From the NCBI GenBank assembly GCA_041650775.1, contig JBAZKO010000003.1, positions 1-60,596 of the forward strand: a DNA stretch of 60,596 nucleotides, in the 5' to 3' direction. This DNA comes from Patescibacteria group bacterium (lineage in GTDB: Bacteria; Patescibacteriota; Patescibacteriia; Patescibacteriales; UBA12465). This document shows, piece after piece, positions 1 to 6,748 of this stretch. Position 1 is the stretch's first letter; each line of letters starts with the position of its first letter. The translations under genes were made by a program, and so were the position numbers. Below the pieces are notes generated by a model. The model saw only the letters and a list, made by a program, of their open reading frames with translations. It had not been told where the DNA came from and made no database searches.

Positions 1-4
1 CTCT

Positions 5-52
5 TTTTTTCTTTTCGGCGGATCCCCCGTAGGGGGAGCCGAAAAGAAAAAA
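5..52. repeat. Inverted repeat / cruciform upstream of rep, candidate double-strand origin
   Basis: Perfect 15-bp arms TTTTTTCTTTTCGGC (5-19) / GCCGAAAAGAAAAAA (38-52) enclose an inner CCCCC-GTA-GGGGG hairpin (24-36). Confidence 0.55.
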
Positions 53-89
53 GTTATCCTTGTTAAAAAGAACATCTAATTAGAACAAT

Positions 90-1034
90 ATGAAAAACTA
101 TAAAGACCAATTCGGGGTAGAAATTCAGCCCAATTATCCGACCAGGAAGAAACTGGTCAAATCGGGTTGTTTAATTGAAGTCTATAAATTCGGAGCTGAT
201 ATTATGTTAGGGCGTAAACTCCGCAAATCAAGAACTCCCGAAGAAGAAGCCTTGCGCCATAAAGAGCCTACTAGCCTCGAAGACATCCTTAAATCGTCTT
301 GTAGGCGATCAAAAAGGATGATTAAACGGTTGATATACGCCAACAGCTTTAAATGGGTAAAAGATAAGGGCAAACCCTATTTACCGATTACTTTGACTTT
401 AACCTTTAAAGAAAACATCCAAGACCTCAAACAGGCCAATTATGAATTTACAAAATTCATTCGTAGACTGAATTATGAAACTAATGGAATCGAGGGCAAG
501 GATTTAAAACAAAGCAATCTTAAATATCTGGCCGTCTTTGAACTCCAAGAACGAGGGGCGATTCATTATCATATGATATTTTTTAATCTGCCCTATATTA
601 AAAATATCTACGACAAGCTAAGGGATATTTGGGGGCAAGGGAGAATAATGGTCGGCGGAAAAGAGCAAAATTTTAAGAAGATTAAAAACCAAGACCAACT
701 AAAGAAAATTATTGATTACTTTATCAAATACATCCAAAAATCTATCTTTGATAATCAATTTCCTGGACAGAAGAAATACATCACGAGCAAGGGACTGCTC
801 AAACCGCAAGAACAATATTTTGAAGAGGTTATTGATTTAATAGAATCGGAAATTCCCTCTGATTGTCTGGTCTATAAACGAGACGGCGAAACGGAATATA
901 ACAACAGCGACATTAACGATACGGTCGGACAGCCTAAAAATTATCTGCGTTGGCTTAATTACTGGCAATATGATTTGTCTAATAATCCGCACGCCGAAGA
1001 TCGCATTAATGAAATATTAGAAACCTATTGTTGA
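90..1034 (+). CDS. HUH-endonuclease rolling-circle replication initiator (Rep)
   Basis: RCR motifs in order: motif I (ITLTLTF), motif II (ELQERGAIHYHMIFF), motif III (YFIKYIQK). Confidence 0.85.
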   Translation: MKNYKDQFGVEIQPNYPTRKKLVKSGCLIEVYKFGADIMLGRKLRKSRTPEEEALRHKEPTSLEDILKSSCRRSKRMIKRLIYANSFKWVKDKGKPYLPITLTLTFKENIQDLKQANYEFTKFIRRLNYETNGIEGKDLKQSNLKYLAVFELQERGAIHYHMIFFNLPYIKNIYDKLRDIWGQGRIMVGGKEQNFKKIKNQDQLKKIIDYFIKYIQKSIFDNQFPGQKKYITSKGLLKPQEQYFEEVIDLIESEIPSDCLVYKRDGETEYNNSDINDTVGQPKNYLRWLNYWQYDLSNNPHAEDRINEILETYC

Positions 1035-1059
1035 TTTTAACTTATATGAATGTTATATT
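1031..1059 (+). promoter_or_regulatory. sigma70-type promoter for the recombinase
   Basis: TTGATT-N17-TATATT overlapping the rep stop codon. Confidence 0.55.
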
Positions 1060-1230
1060 AAAAGCGTTGCTTTAATCTAACAGAACATCCGCCCCAAGGT
1101 ATTTTTTTAACAAAATACCGATTTGTCGCTCGAAATGGGCAGTTCTGCTTAACGATAAATTAACCTTAGGGCTAATTTGTTAGATTAAGGCAACCAGGAC
1201 TGCCCTTTTTGATTATTAAACAATAATTAT

Positions 1231-2772
1231 ATGAACGACAAAAACGAACAAAAAATTAAATATGCCCTCTATTGCCGAAAGTCTACCGAAGACGATACTC
1301 GGCAAGTCTTGTCTTTGGATTCCCAAGAACAGGAAATGCTTAAAATGGCAAATAATTTAGGTTTAGAAATTATCCAAACTTTTAGAGAAAGCAAATCGGC
1401 CAAGAAACCAGATAATAGACCGCAATTTTTCGAACTTATCAATTTGATCAAGCGAGGTAAAATTGACGGCGTTATCTGTTGGAAGATTGACCGTCTTTCT
1501 CGTAATCCGATAGACTCGGCAATTATTCAATGGCTATTACAACAAAATAATTTGAAAATAATTCAAACAATGGAGCGACAATATTTGCCAGGCGATAACG
1601 CTTTGCTTTTTAATGTAGAAAGTGGAATGGCTAATCAATTTATTTTGGACTTATCCAAAAATGTTAAGCGAGGTATTAGAGCCAAACTATCTCAAGGTTA
1701 TTGGCCAAACCTTGCGCCTATCGGTTATTTGAACAAAGACTTAAAAATCGTGGTTGACAAACATCGGGCTAAATTTATCAGACGAGTATTTGAAATGTAT
1801 AATACTGGCAGGTATGGAGTCAAAGAAATATCGCAAATTCTCTATGAAGACGGATTCAGAAGTCGGGGCGGAAAAAAATATTATCCTAGCACCATTCATA
1901 TGATACTTAGCAATTCTTTCTACTGCGGAATTATGGAAAAAGACGGGATTAAATATTTAGGTAAATATGAGCCGATCATTACTAAAGCGTTATTTGATGA
2001 TGTCCAAGTTATTCTAGGAGTAAAAAAACACGTTAAATCTCAAATTATTCCTTTTGCTTTTCGGGGCTTACTCAAATGCGCCAAATGTGGCTGTCTGCTA
2101 ACAGCCACACTCAAGAAAGGCAAACATATTTACTACTATTGTACTAACGGCAAAAATACCTGCCAGGAGCATAAAGTCTATTTGACCGAGGATTATTTGG
2201 ATAAAGAATTACTGGGCGTATTTGATAAGCTGATATTTGACGATGAGGCGATTGAAATGTGCTATCAGACTAAAAAAGAACAAGGCAATAATAATCTAAA
2301 TTATTTAGAGGAGCTTGAGTTAAACCTAAAAAATCGGCTCGCCAAGCTCAAGGAAAGACGGAATACCTTACTAGACGCTTACCTTGATAAAACGCTAGAC
2401 AAGGCCGTTTATGAGGCCAAGGATAAGCAACTGAATAACGAAGAGATAAACTCTTTAAAAGATTTAAGCGACTTAAAAGAGAAATTAAAAGAGGCAGGTA
2501 CGGATACTTTGGAACGGATAAAAAATGTGTTTTTAGAGCCTAAAAGACTGAAAAATACCTTTTTAACTCTGTCTCTTGAGAAAAAACGAGAAGTCTTATT
2601 TTCCTTACTTTGGAACGCTGAAATCGGCAACAAAAAAATCGCTAATATTTCATTCAAAGCACCGTATAAACAGCTCTCTGAAATCACAAATAAAAGCGAT
2701 TTTTCTTCAATGCTCGGGGATAGGGATTCGAACCCCAATAAACAGGACCAGAACCTGTTGTCCTACCGTTAG
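1231..2772 (+). CDS. Large serine recombinase (integrase)
   Basis: N-terminal YCRKST catalytic Ser, DRLSRN motif, recombinase domain (GYWPNLAPIGY), Zn ribbon (CAKC...YYYC...C) and coiled coil. The last 20 codons are antisense to tRNA-Gln. Confidence 0.93.
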   Translation: MNDKNEQKIKYALYCRKSTEDDTRQVLSLDSQEQEMLKMANNLGLEIIQTFRESKSAKKPDNRPQFFELINLIKRGKIDGVICWKIDRLSRNPIDSAIIQWLLQQNNLKIIQTMERQYLPGDNALLFNVESGMANQFILDLSKNVKRGIRAKLSQGYWPNLAPIGYLNKDLKIVVDKHRAKFIRRVFEMYNTGRYGVKEISQILYEDGFRSRGGKKYYPSTIHMILSNSFYCGIMEKDGIKYLGKYEPIITKALFDDVQVILGVKKHVKSQIIPFAFRGLLKCAKCGCLLTATLKKGKHIYYYCTNGKNTCQEHKVYLTEDYLDKELLGVFDKLIFDDEAIEMCYQTKKEQGNNNLNYLEELELNLKNRLAKLKERRNTLLDAYLDKTLDKAVYEAKDKQLNNEEINSLKDLSDLKEKLKEAGTDTLERIKNVFLEPKRLKNTFLTLSLEKKREVLFSLLWNAEIGNKKIANISFKAPYKQLSEITNKSDFSSMLGDRDSNPNKQDQNLLSYR

Positions 2773-2783
2773 ACGATCCCCGA
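2713..2783 (-). tRNA. tRNA-Gln(CTG)
   Basis: Minus strand TCGGGGA...TCCCCGA-G acceptor stem with U1-A72 and G73; anticodon loop TTCTGGT; T-loop TTCGAAT. CCA is not encoded. Confidence 0.95.
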
Positions 2784-2790
2784 ATATTTT

Positions 2791-3228
2791 TTAATCTTTT
2801 ATTTTTTCCCAATCGGCTACGCCTCCCGCCGTTACTTGGAATAATCGGTTAGGCTTTACGGACGCTTCACTCTTTATTATTTGATAACGGGCGTAATCCC
2901 GCTCCCTAAGCTTATTTAAGAGATGCCGGAACTCATAAGTCAACTGACCTCTGCTTACTTTAATATTTTTTAATTTTTTTTTCAAGGGGGCGAGTTTGCG
3001 AGCCTCAAAATGATATCCGCGTTGCGTCGCTTCATTATATATTTCCGTCAAAAACCAATTAATATAAGCGAGCGGAACACCGGTCTGCCGGAATCTCGTG
3101 AGTTGCGGATGGTTCTTATAACCCCTGGTTTTTCCGGATAAAACCTTCTTAGCCAGTAAACCTTCGCGCCAGACCGCTAATAATCCTTGGCGATCCAGAT
3201 ATTGTGGGTGCAGGCTCCAAAGGCGCAT
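2791..3228 (-). CDS. Pyrimidine dimer DNA glycosylase (T4 endonuclease V family)
   Basis: N-terminal MRLWSLHP..LD..GL.A.WRE.LLA..VL and GYKNHPQL.RF signatures. Confidence 0.85.
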   Translation of the reverse strand: MRLWSLHPQYLDRQGLLAVWREGLLAKKVLSGKTRGYKNHPQLTRFRQTGVPLAYINWFLTEIYNEATQRGYHFEARKLAPLKKKLKNIKVSRGQLTYEFRHLLNKLRERDYARYQIIKSEASVKPNRLFQVTAGGVADWEKIKD

Positions 3229-3230
3229 AA

Positions 3231-4727
3231 TTAGGATTTCTTATTCTGTTCTTTCGGCCGCATCAGTGGAAAAATCTGGCATTCCCGGGAAGATTTATTC
3301 ATTAAGAAGCTAAACAGGCGTTCACTGAATCCAAAACCGCAAGTCGGCGGCATACCGTATTCAAGAGCTTCGACGAAATCATGATCGTGTTCCTGCGCCT
3401 CTTCATCGCCAGCTTCGCGTAATTTCTGCTGTTCCTTAAATCTTTCTTCCTGGTCTAGCGGATTATTTAATTCGCTATAGCCGTTGCCCATTTCCGAACC
3501 GGCTAAAATAACCTGGAATCTTTGCGCCAGAGCCGAATTTTTTTCATCGCGCTTGGCTAAGGGCGAAACCGTAATCGGCGTACCGACCAAAAATCCCGGT
3601 CCGGCGATTTGTTTGCGGCAATATTTCCATAAATTATCAATGGCGCGCGTTATGTTAAAACCTTTCTTCTCGTATTCCACGCCCAATTCTTCCAATTTCT
3701 TCTTTATTTCTTTCTCATCAGCCGTCAGGATATCCACGCCGGTCATCTTTTTAACGGTTTCACGATAATCATATCTTTCCCAGGCCTTTTCTAAATCGAC
3801 ATTAAAATCCTTAATTTTGAATTTAAGCGTTCCGAAAGTTTCTTGGGCGATATGTTTGTATAGCTCTTCCGTTAATTTCATGCCCGCTTCGTAATCGGCG
3901 TAAGCCCAATAAAATTCCATCTGGGTATAATCCTGCAGATGTTCGGCGTCCATACCTTCATTCCTGAACTGCCGCCCGATTTCAAAAGTCTTCTCCAGAC
4001 CGGCAACCATCAGTTTCTTCTGCCACAATTCGCCCATGGAAATCCGCAAAAAAACATCGATATCCAGCGCGTTATGATGGGTCTTGAAAGGTTTGGCGTC
4101 GGCACCGCCAGCCATTGTTTCCAAAATCGGCGTTTCTACCTCGATAAAATTCCGCGCCACTAAAAATTCCCGAGTCGTCTGCCAAAACTTGGCGCGCCGC
4201 ATAATCATTTCCCGTGTTTCCGGATTCAATAAAATGTCCAGATACCGGCGGCGAAATATCTCCTCCTCGTCTTTCAGTCCGTACCAAGCGTCCGGAATTG
4301 GCAGAAGAGCCTTAGTTAAAAGACGCCAACTTTTAACCATTAAACTTTTTTCGCCTTTATGGGTAAGAAAACAAACGCCACCAGCTTCCAAAAAGTCGCC
4401 GGTGTCGATTAATTTTACAAAATTTTTATAACTGCCGTCACCTAGGTCTTTTTTTGACAAGGCGATTTGCATCTGACCAGTGGCATCTTCCAAACTGGCG
4501 AAAGTCAGATTGCCGTGTGAGCGAATACTGCGCAGACGACCGACGATCTTAAATTCTTTTTCGGATTTCTGCAGGGACGCAAAATCAGCCAGCGCTTTCC
4601 CGATCAGATAATCACGCTCCGCTCTAGCCGGATAAGGATCAAGACCCAACTTAATCAGTTCCGCTAATTTTTTTAAGCGGTCGTCGCGTTCGCTCCCTGT
4701 TGTCTTAACATCTTTATCCTCGGACAT
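3231..4727 (-). CDS. lysS: Lysine--tRNA ligase (class II)
   Basis: OB-fold anticodon domain; FIEVETPIL, GRQFRNEG and EYGMPPTCGFGF motifs. Confidence 0.97.
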   Translation of the reverse strand: MSEDKDVKTTGSERDDRLKKLAELIKLGLDPYPARAERDYLIGKALADFASLQKSEKEFKIVGRLRSIRSHGNLTFASLEDATGQMQIALSKKDLGDGSYKNFVKLIDTGDFLEAGGVCFLTHKGEKSLMVKSWRLLTKALLPIPDAWYGLKDEEEIFRRRYLDILLNPETREMIMRRAKFWQTTREFLVARNFIEVETPILETMAGGADAKPFKTHHNALDIDVFLRISMGELWQKKLMVAGLEKTFEIGRQFRNEGMDAEHLQDYTQMEFYWAYADYEAGMKLTEELYKHIAQETFGTLKFKIKDFNVDLEKAWERYDYRETVKKMTGVDILTADEKEIKKKLEELGVEYEKKGFNITRAIDNLWKYCRKQIAGPGFLVGTPITVSPLAKRDEKNSALAQRFQVILAGSEMGNGYSELNNPLDQEERFKEQQKLREAGDEEAQEHDHDFVEALEYGMPPTCGFGFSERLFSFLMNKSSRECQIFPLMRPKEQNKKS

Positions 4728-4760: not shown

Positions 4761-5219
4761 TTATTCTATTTCCAGGATCTTATATTTGACTACTCCCTTG
4801 GGCGTTTCGACTTCCACCGTCTCGCCTTTATGCCGATGTAAAAAAGCCACGCCAAGAGGCGATTCGTTGGAAATTCGGCCGTTTAAGGGATCAGCCTCGT
4901 TAAAACTGACGATAGTATACTGCTTTTCCCCGCTATTGGATTTAACGGTCACTTTCGAACCCATCATGATTTCGTCGCGAGAAGAGCCGTTTTCGACGAC
5001 AGTGACATTCTTTAAAGTATTGGTCAGTTCCAGAATTCGTCCTTCGTTCAAAGCCTGCGCGTCTTTAGCCTCGCTGTATTCGGCGTTTTCGCTTAAATCA
5101 CCCAACTCTTTAGCGCGTTCAATCCGCTCGGCAATCTCTTTGCGTTTGACGGTCGCTAGCAAATTAAGTTCGTCTTTTAATTTATTATATCCCTCCTGAG
5201 AAATAATTTGCTCATTCAT
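4761..5219 (-). CDS. greA: Transcription elongation factor GreA
   Basis: GDLSENAEY tip motif and ISNESPLG C-terminal motif; adjacent to lysS. Confidence 0.96.
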   Translation of the reverse strand: MNEQIISQEGYNKLKDELNLLATVKRKEIAERIERAKELGDLSENAEYSEAKDAQALNEGRILELTNTLKNVTVVENGSSRDEIMMGSKVTVKSNSGEKQYTIVSFNEADPLNGRISNESPLGVAFLHRHKGETVEVETPKGVVKYKILEIE

Positions 5220-5251
5220 AGTTTTATTTTTTATAACTGATTAATTAATGT

Positions 5252-6748
5252 TTAATATACTCTATCGGACCAAATTAAACAAGAGCTGACAACTAAAAAA
5301 CCGATGCCCAAAGGATGATTTAGGTAAGGGGTAAAAGTATGGGTAACGGCGATAAATACTAGACCGGCGCCTAAGCCGAAATAAATATAATTATTATATT
5401 TGAACCCCGCTTTTAGTCCGGTTACCAATAATTTAAACAGGAGGAAAAGATAAGCTAACAAACCAAATATTCCTAATTTTAGCCAAATATCTAAATAACC
5501 CCATTCGAAAGCGTAAGTTTTATATTCGCCAGTCGGACTGTTTTGTAAAATCCGGGGATCACGGGAAAAATAGGTAACGGTCGCGCCGTATCCCTGTCCG
5601 AAGAAAGGTTCTTTCTTTATTTCTTTCATCAGAATCGGCAGTAATGACCAGCGGGAAGCTAAGGCTGGCTCGTTATCGCTTTTAACCCGTTCCAAAAAGA
5701 CCGAACTCAGATTGCCGGAATGGGTCCGCCAATAAGGAAAATCCACTGTTAGATAAATCATCAAGAATCCTAAAACCGCGGCGCCAGCGAGCCAGCCGGC
5801 GGCCGTAATCGCTTTTTTGAAAGAATAAAGGCGCCAGACCAAAATCAAACTAAAAAAAAGCGTCACCAACAATCCGACCCAGAAACTGCGAGAAAAACTG
5901 ATCAGAACGGAACTTAAAAATAAAGCGGCGGCGATGAGCGGCCAAAAATTTTTCCGGCAAAAAAATTCTTTAAAATTAAAATTAGCCACCGCGGACCAAA
6001 AAACCAGAAAAAAAGCGATCGCCGAAAAAATCTGTCCCTGGATAAAAATCCGTGGCCAGCCGCCGGTTGTCGGGGTCATCTCGCCGACCAGCGTTTTTCG
6101 GAGCCAATAATAAATATCCGGCGCCCAACTTGAATTATGGGTAAAGATGAAAAGCAGGAATAGAGTCTTGAGACCCAGCCAGATTACGGCGGCCAGGAAA
6201 ACTATCTGTAAACGCGCCGCTTTCCCTTCGTTCAAATCGCTATAAACAACGATAAGTGGCAGAAGCAACAAAAAATAAAGCCAAGCGTTAAAATCCGCGA
6301 AGATTAAAGCCGGCGCCTGACCGCGAATCAGGCCATTGATCAAACCAAGCAAAATAAATAAAAATAAAACTCCAAAAAATTTCTTCCCGGGAAAACTCTT
6401 TAGACTCAACCAATAAGCACTTCGGCCTTTTGACTTTATAATCTGCGCAAGGAAGCGCCAGGAAAAAACGAACATCAACACCAGCCATAAAGCGATTCTG
6501 ATTGTCAGCTGACCGCCGCCGATATTCAAATAGAACAAATGCCCCAGAGAACCGATAAACAATTCAGCTAAAATAACAAGCAGTCCGTATTCCAAACTAT
6601 AAAAAGTTAGGACTAAAGACGCTAACACCAGTAGGCCGAAAATAATCTGGTTAACCGCCGGAAAAGATAAGCCGACAGCGGATAAGATCTCCATCGTCAG
6701 AAAAATGGCCAGAACGATTAATAATTTTTTACCGTTGATTTTAAACAT
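5252..6748 (-). CDS. O-antigen ligase / oligosaccharyltransferase-like (Wzy_C) membrane protein
   Basis: Multi-TM protein with SFSRS.W and R...W....P.FGQGYG motifs; lies in a glycosyltransferase/flippase cluster. Confidence 0.8.
   Translation of the reverse strand: MFKINGKKLLIVLAIFLTMEILSAVGLSFPAVNQIIFGLLVLASLVLTFYSLEYGLLVILAELFIGSLGHLFYLNIGGGQLTIRIALWLVLMFVFSWRFLAQIIKSKGRSAYWLSLKSFPGKKFFGVLFLFILLGLINGLIRGQAPALIFADFNAWLYFLLLLPLIVVYSDLNEGKAARLQIVFLAAVIWLGLKTLFLLFIFTHNSSWAPDIYYWLRKTLVGEMTPTTGGWPRIFIQGQIFSAIAFFLVFWSAVANFNFKEFFCRKNFWPLIAAALFLSSVLISFSRSFWVGLLVTLFFSLILVWRLYSFKKAITAAGWLAGAAVLGFLMIYLTVDFPYWRTHSGNLSSVFLERVKSDNEPALASRWSLLPILMKEIKKEPFFGQGYGATVTYFSRDPRILQNSPTGEYKTYAFEWGYLDIWLKLGIFGLLAYLFLLFKLLVTGLKAGFKYNNYIYFGLGAGLVFIAVTHTFTPYLNHPLGIGFLVVSSCLIWSDRVY

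Follow-up and report, generated by a model that had tools for sequence, protein, structure and literature searches.

The window examined here is a stretch of 60,596 nucleotides (contig JBAZKO010000003.1 of assembly GCA_041650775.1) from a member of the Falkowbacteria (Patescibacteria; Candidate Phyla Radiation, CPR), and is contig C3 of an 886-kb assembly in 26 contigs. It starts at a contig end, where a rolling-circle replication gene and the gene of a large serine recombinase (LSR) are followed by a tRNA-Gln gene. Together with sequence on a second contig, C10, these two genes are read here as an integrated element, E1.

Rep, encoded at positions 90-1034 on the plus strand, is a 314-residue two-tyrosine rolling-circle initiator of the HUH type. 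It matches PF23343 (REP_ORF2-G2P; E 1e-17, 64.7 bits against a cut-off of 27.8) and PHROG 3419 ('rolling circle DNA replication initiation'; E 3e-26), with a weak match to RepSA (E 9e-6) falling under the Pfam cut-off. The motifs ITLTLTF (motif I), HYHMIF (HUH) and DYFIKYIQK (Y-x3-Y) can be read in the open reading frame (ORF), and a 28% identical paralogue on contig C5 keeps them as FVTLTF, HYHLLV and YISKYVGK.

The LSR (513 residues; 1231-2772, plus strand) contains the domains Resolvase (PF00239, E 6.5e-23), Recombinase (PF07508, E 2.3e-16) and Zn_ribbon_recom (PF13408, E 1.2e-8), and matches PHROG 95 ('integrase', E 2e-87). Its catalytic-serine motif YCRKST aligns to YCRVST of 3g13, and also to the TP901-1 integrase. 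The gene converges on an intact tRNA-Gln(CTG) gene, found with ARAGORN at 2712-2783 on the minus strand, and runs into it: residues 1-493 are encoded by the element and residues 494-513 are read off the complementary strand of the tRNA gene. The protein ends in ...SSMLGDRDSNPNKQDQNLLSYR in the integrated state as opposed to ...SSMLRGWDIVRTNLNNIYLIKT in the predicted excised state, each tail being 20 residues long; excision is predicted to give the LSR the 20-residue tail MLRGWDIVRTNLNNIYLIKT. The G+C content is 0.34-0.38 over positions 1-2750 and 0.43-0.46 beyond. A preliminary description had reported an HUH Rep with three motifs just upstream of an LSR, in an AT-rich block reaching the tRNA 3' end, and both observations stand. 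Its placing of the element at 1-2783 was right as far as it went; only half of the element lies there, because the window begins at a contig end.

The break between the two halves falls at a hairpin (window 5-52; 24-bp perfect stem, loop GTA) whose predicted DNA fold has an energy of -22.9 kcal/mol (z -6.3), a value equalled by none of 200 shuffled sequences. The palindrome is a plausible cause of the break in assembly. Positions 1-70 of the window and of C10 are exact reverse complements, and the joined contigs match three loci in other genomes (L012, L081 and L082) collinearly, in single junction-crossing alignments of 88-91% nucleotide identity, which validates the join. Reading from the tRNA, the gene order is thus LSR, Rep, the hairpin, a 47-residue protein (C10:71-214), a 248-residue protein (C10:291-1037), a GT4 glycosyltransferase (C10:1165-2301; Glycos_transf_1, E 3e-11, with a 'GT4-conflict' match too) and a 152-residue multi-span membrane protein without a family match (C10:2313-2771). 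The far end is formed by psiDR, GTTCTAACTATATCCCAACCTCGGAGCA (C10:2795-2822), which resembles a tRNA T arm. We place at roughly 0.8 the probability that window 1-2711 and C10:71-2822 constitute a single mobile element of ~5.46 kb ending at psiDR.

The 47-residue protein is conserved across nearly all relatives and the 248-residue protein is restricted to the closest ones; neither of these, nor a 316-residue protein conserved in relatives, has a match in Pfam or PHROG. Family searches of the E1 ORFs found no Zot/pI, coat or transfer genes, although for coat-like proteins very small ORFs were only partly covered. There is no second recombinase in E1, no match to FtsK or Tra, and no recognisable relaxase or oriT. 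As it has no gene for cell-to-cell transfer, E1 may be likened to an integrative mobilizable element (IME).

The hairpin adjoins a leader, GTTATCCTTGTTAA(A/G)AGAAC(A/T)TCTAATTAGAAC (window 53-89, plus strand), which directly precedes the rep ATG. This leader is nearly invariant across 15 related loci, whereas the adjoining hairpin stems are variable; the hairpin structure is nevertheless kept with differing stem sequences in L029, L017, L028 and L031. On this pattern of conservation the leader is a candidate region for binding and nicking by Rep. Its CTTG|TTAA is similar to CTTG|ATA, at which phiX174 and pC194 are nicked. The hairpin is itself a candidate for part of a double-strand origin, or for a packaging or terminator hairpin.

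Alignments of E1 with L012 and L081 break at the rep-int spacer (window 1035-1230), with inserts that differ between the two. In these closest relatives the additional 420-600 bp (L081 9065-9506; L012 11129-11543) hold a small minus-strand ORF, for an HNH-like protein in one and a zinc-ribbon membrane protein in the other, so that the spacer looks like a second cargo slot within the core. Distant Rep homologues (about 50% identity in the HUH region) also occur in Lachnospiraceae/Ruminococcus (L048-L051, L053), where a convergent tRNA-Pro lies ~1.7 kb downstream of them. Firmicutes may therefore have Rep-integrase-tRNA elements of a similar kind; no LSR homologue was detected at these five loci.

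Insertion, spread and choice of tRNA

The host side of the locus is conserved. A pyrimidine-dimer DNA glycosylase gene (2791-3228; PF03013, E 6.5e-22) and a lysyl-tRNA synthetase gene, lysS (3231-4727), named from its sequence and conserved neighbourhood, follow on the minus strand (2791-4727 in all). The order lysS, glycosylase, tRNA-Gln(CTG) is found family-wide, with orthologues beside tRNA-Gln(CTG) in 17 related genomes. The preliminary description had proposed a search of relatives for an empty site, and such sites exist: in L061, L062, L063, L067, L073, L074 and L078 a terminator and host DNA come immediately after the tRNA gene. Six other relatives have solo copies of a GC-rich module, considered below, in this place, and one (L077) has a remnant of the LSR 3' end.

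Rep homologues are present in 47 of 121 family genomes, and multiple copies per genome are frequent. In a genome of another genus (G003, genus g4), Rep and LSR are 97% identical to those of E1 in amino acid sequence (88-90% in nucleotides), as against 58% for the host glycosylase. This genome and the E1 host derive from the same metagenome, Ga0265297, and the near identity of Rep and LSR across co-resident genera fits a recent transfer. Furthermore, elements of the E1 lineage with Rep proteins 96-99% identical lie at tRNA-Asn(GTT) and tRNA-Gln(TTG), and the Rep proteins of copies at tRNA-Gln(CTG) are 84-98% identical. Near-identical copies in other genera and at other tRNAs thus bear out the mobility which had been supposed at the outset.

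The element-encoded sequence abutting the tRNA travels with these copies. The P' arm TTGAAGAAAAATCGCTTTT (tRNA orientation; window 2692-2710, minus strand), which also holds the last element-encoded codons of the LSR, recurs after tRNA-Asn in L082 and after psiDR in L012, L081 (the L087 record) and L090. The right arm TTGAAGAAAAATCGC, at the coding end of the LSR, is identical beside tRNA-Gln, tRNA-Asn and the psiDR sites of tandem arrays.

The wider clade targets all four tRNA-Ser isoacceptors as well as Ala, Gly, Trp, Lys and Glu tRNAs. A quick tree of the LSRs has a Gln/Asn clade (support 100), and within its Ser clade the enzymes of the four isoacceptors are mixed; the class of target therefore seems to be set by a shared acceptor end and not by the anticodon.

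No direct sign of present-day excision was seen, and this would fit genes which are fixed and vertically inherited by the host, or a dead and immobile remnant. We consider either highly improbable. The empty sites in relatives, the patchy and multi-copy distribution, the 97% identical copies in another genus and at other tRNAs, the intact state of all ORFs and a G+C content 9 points below that of the flank all stand against it, and as regards past mobility it is already contradicted.

Attachment sites and the far border

psiDR resembles the T arm and the 3' acceptor strand of a tRNA with extra bases inserted. When every locus retrieved was searched for the psiDR family with a spacer allowed to vary from 0 to 9 nt, the 90 matches outside tRNAs all had the spacing GTTC-N8-TCC, as opposed to GTTC-N3-TCC in tRNAs. 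Conservation at psiDR junctions stops at the core GAGCA, which at the tRNA-Gln end occupies window 2711-2715 (minus strand) and includes the predicted crossover dinucleotide GA (2715-2714). In serine integrases an outer motif occupies positions 16-24 of attP half-sites and is moved 5 bp inward, to 11-19, in attB (PMC3783163). With GA as the centre, the motif GTTCNAAN falls at 16-23 in psiDR and at 11-18 in the tRNA; the dinucleotide lies within CCCC-GA-GCA, and CC takes its place in tRNA-Ser sites. The 5-bp shift agrees with the published rule, so that the role of P arm would fall to psiDR and that of B arm to the T arm and acceptor end of the tRNA. This shift between attP and attB is seen in the left half-site only, and the crossover at GA and the form of the right half-site are predictions from sequence.

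A mechanism can be proposed on this basis. The LSR would recombine the attP of E1, composed of the psiDR arm GTTCTAACTATATCCCAACCTCGGAGCA followed by TTGAAGAAAAATCGC, with an attB whose left half is made up of the T arm and 3' acceptor strand of a tRNA gene. psiDR would imitate the tRNA end with its GTTC set 5 bp farther from the centre, the spacing by which serine integrases distinguish attP from attB. With a crossover within GAGCA, at a distance of a few bases from the 3' end of the tRNA, the tRNA would stay intact. The emptied attB is predicted to read tRNA-Gln ...CCCCGAGCA followed by CTAAAATAAAAAAGC.... Excision would require a directionality factor, after which Rep may nick the circle near the conserved hairpin and leader and so begin rolling-circle copying. 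The glycosyltransferase and membrane protein would probably alter the cell surface.

Beyond psiDR lie a terminator-like hairpin and a GC-rich non-coding segment of ~170 nt (C10:2857-3029), homologous to a stand-alone module behind tRNA-Gln(TTG) on contig C1. Such modules are ~170-215 nt long (C10:2823-3038 and 5227-5334 in locus L009; about 3035-3215 in locus L011, on C1), open with an inverted copy and close with an exact copy of the neighbouring tRNA 3' end, and occur either after a true tRNA, as solo modules, or after psiDR; the spacing at their ends is of the attB type and not of the attP type. Two other roles for them were considered. The inverted tRNA copy was rejected as a tRNA primer-binding site, as the complement stops short of the tRNA 3' terminus. 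Integration of folded single-stranded DNA through the closing helix of the module, in the manner of CTX phage, was likewise rejected, this time on mechanistic grounds: a serine recombinase cleaves each of its two partners in both strands.

The preliminary description had proposed looking for a second att site on an extension of the contig. Contig C10 supplied this extension, together with two candidates for the border: psiDR and, 190 bp farther, an exact second copy (C10:3012-3038) of the 27-bp sequence AATCCCTATCCCCGAGCATTGAAGAAA at window 2702-2728 (minus strand), which consists of 18 nt of tRNA and 9 nt beyond.

Several points weigh against a mobile element of 5.46 kb with psiDR as its end. 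One is this exact repeat. Another is that all three Rep+LSR elements of the genome are followed by a GC-rich module, which may travel with the element. The right half-site has no clear dyad symmetry with psiDR, and a directionality factor was not recognised. No circular copy was found either: none of 80 metagenome contigs of the E1 clade has a terminal overlap; such overlaps were found only in two 1.5-kb contigs of distant Rep relatives. Two small contigs, L102 and L103, were considered as circles and rejected, being pieces of a tandem array.

The first two of these points could mean that the mobile unit is a 5.67-kb composite between the exact 27-bp repeats, with psiDR as an internal relic. 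The module (C10:2857-3029) would then be part of E1, for example a single-strand origin or part of attP, and attP would read ...GGCGAAAATCCCTATCCCCGAGCA followed by TTGAAGAAAAATCGC.... A folded GC-rich segment of about 170 nt has the look of the single-strand origin of a rolling-circle replicon. The exact repeat runs 9 bp past the tRNA end, matching the P' arm of E1, and hairpin, module and exact repeat follow 3/3 Rep+LSR elements, with one solo module seen among the other tRNA genes of the genome. From this difference some coupling of element and module is likely. The profile used to find modules, built from two sequences, is weak and missed the module on contig C6 and most of those in other loci, so that module counts are lower bounds.

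The behaviour of psiDR and of the module elsewhere nevertheless makes the composite unlikely. Nearly the same psiDR ends the E1-lineage elements in L082, L086 and L087. In L082, where the Rep is 99% identical and the target is tRNA-Asn, psiDR is followed by a plain terminator without a module, and the elements in L013 and L019 likewise end at psiDR with no module after it. A variant, CCGTTCCAAGTGCGTCCCACCCTCTCCGCA, marks the far ends of Ser-type elements and the borders of cassettes at about 20 loci, always in the orientation of the tRNA and with conservation ending at ...CCGCA, and each of the three Rep+LSR elements in the genome has exactly one psiDR. The module for its part is found without an integrase: in L060, L065, L068, L072, L075 and L076 a solo hairpin and module stand behind tRNA-Gln(CTG). 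At C10:5197-5334 a different psiDR is succeeded by a near-identical hairpin and a truncated copy of the module. In L102 the LSR element is separated from the tRNA by modules, from which it follows that the modules arrived later and separately, and the attB-type spacing of the module end also speaks against a place in attP. The shared psiDR, its use in the Ser clade, the solo modules and their separate arrival together indicate that E1 ends at psiDR and measures ~5.46 kb, the module with the 27-bp repeat being a neighbouring unit. The exact repeat was accordingly demoted as the border of E1, since psiDR ends related elements which have no module.

Plasmid or phage, and the other elements of the genome

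The preliminary description had left open whether this was a compact rolling-circle element or a filamentous prophage using a serine integrase. The first alternative fits E1, which is probably an integrative rolling-circle plasmid rather than a phage; the second fits E1 less well, the Zot/pI and coat genes sought on extension of the contig not having been found in it. The closest named relatives of the Rep are those of Firmicutes plasmids of 1.5-7 kb (E 1e-33 to 1e-22), with the replication proteins of inoviruses (Ralstonia phiRSM1, Rs551 and RSIBR3; Spiroplasma) more distant at E about 1e-7. No Zot homologue was found within 10 kb at any locus of the E1 Rep clade. Across the family, Zot of the type found on contig C5 is present in 8 of 121 genomes, 3 of the 21 with the E1 Rep clade and 5 of the 100 without it, and is thus not clearly enriched with the clade. 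It is the plasmid-type nearest Reps, the lack of a nearby Zot and the lack of a clear enrichment which favour the plasmid.

E1 could also derive from a filamentous, inovirus-like phage, as a satellite or in defective form, having retained Rep, an integrase and a packaging hairpin and relying on a helper for the Zot/pI and coat proteins with which single-stranded DNA leaves the cell. Its Rep belongs to the gene-II/ORF2 family PF23343 and matches inoviruses which themselves integrate at tRNA-Ser by means of a serine recombinase (phiRSM1; PMC4471427); the same genome holds an inovirus-like prophage; and the long, structurally conserved hairpin stands where Ff phages have their packaging signal. 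The shared docking system and the conserved hairpin make such a life style possible. It is improbable, however, given that the Rep is much nearer to those of small plasmids than to those of phages, that no coat-like genes were found in E1, that the E1 clade has no relative in the viral contig collection searched, and that Zot is not clearly enriched in genomes with the clade; a dependence on a helper, looked for in the co-occurrence of Rep and Zot, gave no clear signal.

The filamentous phage that had been suspected does exist in this genome, with the same integration layout as E1 and with Zot/pI in addition. It is a prophage of 17.5 kb at C5:29267-46754, integrated at tRNA-Ser(GCT) with a 19-bp repeat and its own psiDR and module. 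Its Rep (PF23343, 28% identity) and LSR (35% identity) are distant from those of E1, and its Zot/pI matches PF05707 (E 1e-10) and the PHROG entry 'protein I of M13'. It further encodes a 707-residue secreted protein, a LexA-like repressor, an ArdC-N protein and a metal-ATPase/ArsR/cysteine-desulfurase block. This Zot has counterparts of 96-97% identity in three other genomes, including one from a different genus.

In all, the genome has six LSR genes, each converging on the 3' end of a different tRNA (6/6), and three of them are accompanied by a replication gene. The third such element is a sister of E1, 10.1 kb in length, at C6:21729-31876 (L010/L105), inserted at tRNA-Ser(GGA) with a 20-bp repeat. 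It has the core of a 316-residue protein, a 47-residue protein, Rep and LSR seen in relatives, with 72% nucleotide identity to E1 over the Rep-LSR core, and its cargo is a defence island comprising SIR2 with HerA, GmrSD/HNH, an EcoRI-type adenine methylase and a Hypoth_Ymh protein. Three further LSRs, 30-35% identical to that of the window and without a Rep, lie at C5:20718-22307 (tRNA-Ser-TGA), C4:34584-36203 (Gly-GCC) and C4:2126-3650 (His-GTG); neither a repeat nor a psiDR was found for any of the three.

Downstream of tRNA-Gln, psiDR recurs at C10:2795, 4399 and 5197, and module copies lie at C10:2857 and 5261. The interval C10:3039-5230 (L009) is AT-rich (26-36% G+C), and the psiDR copies at 4399-4426 and 5197-5226 bound integrase-less cassettes, one with TfoX_N, Zn_ribbon_2 and a 66-residue ORF and the other with PQ-loop membrane proteins. 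Counting these further cassettes, at least four units are stacked at tRNA-Gln(CTG). Elsewhere, a 7.3-kb island of 32% G+C (C7:31193-38495) lies at tRNA-Asn(GTT) with a 21-bp tRNA-end repeat and restriction-modification-like genes; its tRNA-adjacent 380-residue ORF is not an LSR and is possibly a tyrosine integrase. Further islands, split by the assembly, may be marked by additional copies of the tRNA-Glu and tRNA-Arg(TCG) 3' ends on other contigs, at C8:1708 and C1:123681.

The E1 family seems to recognise tRNA ends via a built-in tRNA look-alike site. It is attractive to consider, if only tentatively, that tRNA 3' ends in Patescibacteria serve as integron-like platforms for one clade of LSRs, that these enzymes take the universal T arm for attB and its imitation, which has a 5-bp spacer, for attP, and that they form a naturally retargetable integrase family. 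If so, autonomous Rep+LSR plasmids, inovirus-like prophages, integrase-less cassettes and GC-rich non-coding modules would share one platform and stack upon it. Hopping between tRNAs with similar ends (Gln and Asn; the four Ser) would be possible because only a few acceptor-end bases near the crossover must match. The genomes of CPR bacteria are very small and have few recognised mobile elements, yet this one of 886 kb has six serine integrases, and the cargo of its Rep-bearing elements consists of surface-modification, defence or phage genes. Gene exchange in CPR may depend in large part on LSR elements, and the near-identical copy in a co-sampled genus points in that direction. Serine integrases are widely used in genome engineering, and a family directed at tRNA T arms could provide many natural attP/attB pairs; enzymes of the E1 type, whose own site recognisably mimics the T arm but for the textbook offset of 5 bp, would also offer a way to study shifts in target choice.

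Comparison with known systems

Parts of this arrangement have precedents. Islands targeting tRNA genes are usually ascribed to tyrosine integrases (Islander); inoviruses have been predicted in CPR genomes (PMC6813254); and filamentous phages in which a small serine recombinase directs integration at tRNA-Ser are known (PMC4471427). We found no description in the literature searched of small Rep+LSR replicons which target tRNA ends, nor of an attP that is a T-arm look-alike.

The ssrA islands of Dehalococcoides (DsiB; McMurdie et al. 2011, PMC3146451) offer a number of parallels. In these as in E1 the LSR gene is convergent with a tRNA-like gene and extends into its 3' end, which places the LSR stop codon outside the island. 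Both have copies of the target 3' end at their borders with a non-matching motif just upstream of each, and both are stacked in tandem, with some units lacking an integrase and none bearing transfer genes. E1 differs in that its family uses ordinary tRNA genes, of at least 12 kinds, instead of ssrA, lacks a second small recombinase of the DsiA/CcrA type, and has its own rolling-circle Rep and origin; at 5.5 kb it is also much smaller, and its host is a member of the Patescibacteria.

The Ralstonia phages phiRSM1 and phiRSM3 (PMC4471427) share with E1 a related Rep (28% identity, E about 1e-7) and a serine recombinase acting at a tRNA 3' end (tRNA-Ser, 13 bp). Their enzyme is however of the small resolvase/invertase type, and each is a complete inovirus with coat and pI.

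The integrases of A118/LI, Bxb1, phiC31 and TP901-1 target protein-coding or intergenic sites. They have the same domain set as the LSR of E1, and the 5-bp displacement of the outer motif falls at the same positions if GA is the centre (PMC3783163). In E1, by contrast, attB is the T arm and acceptor end of a tRNA and attP is a T-arm look-alike, and one enzyme clade serves several tRNAs.

Integrative and conjugative elements of the pSAM2 type and the IMEs of Firmicutes resemble E1 in being small and in combining an integrase for tRNA 3' ends with a rolling-circle Rep. pSAM2 employs a tyrosine integrase and an FtsK-like transfer protein, whereas E1 has a serine recombinase and no FtsK/Tra match. 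The small cryptic plasmids of Firmicutes (Brevibacillus, Geobacillus), finally, possess the closest named Reps (33-35% identity, E down to 1e-33); these plasmids, of 1.5-7 kb, are free and, unlike E1, have no integrase.

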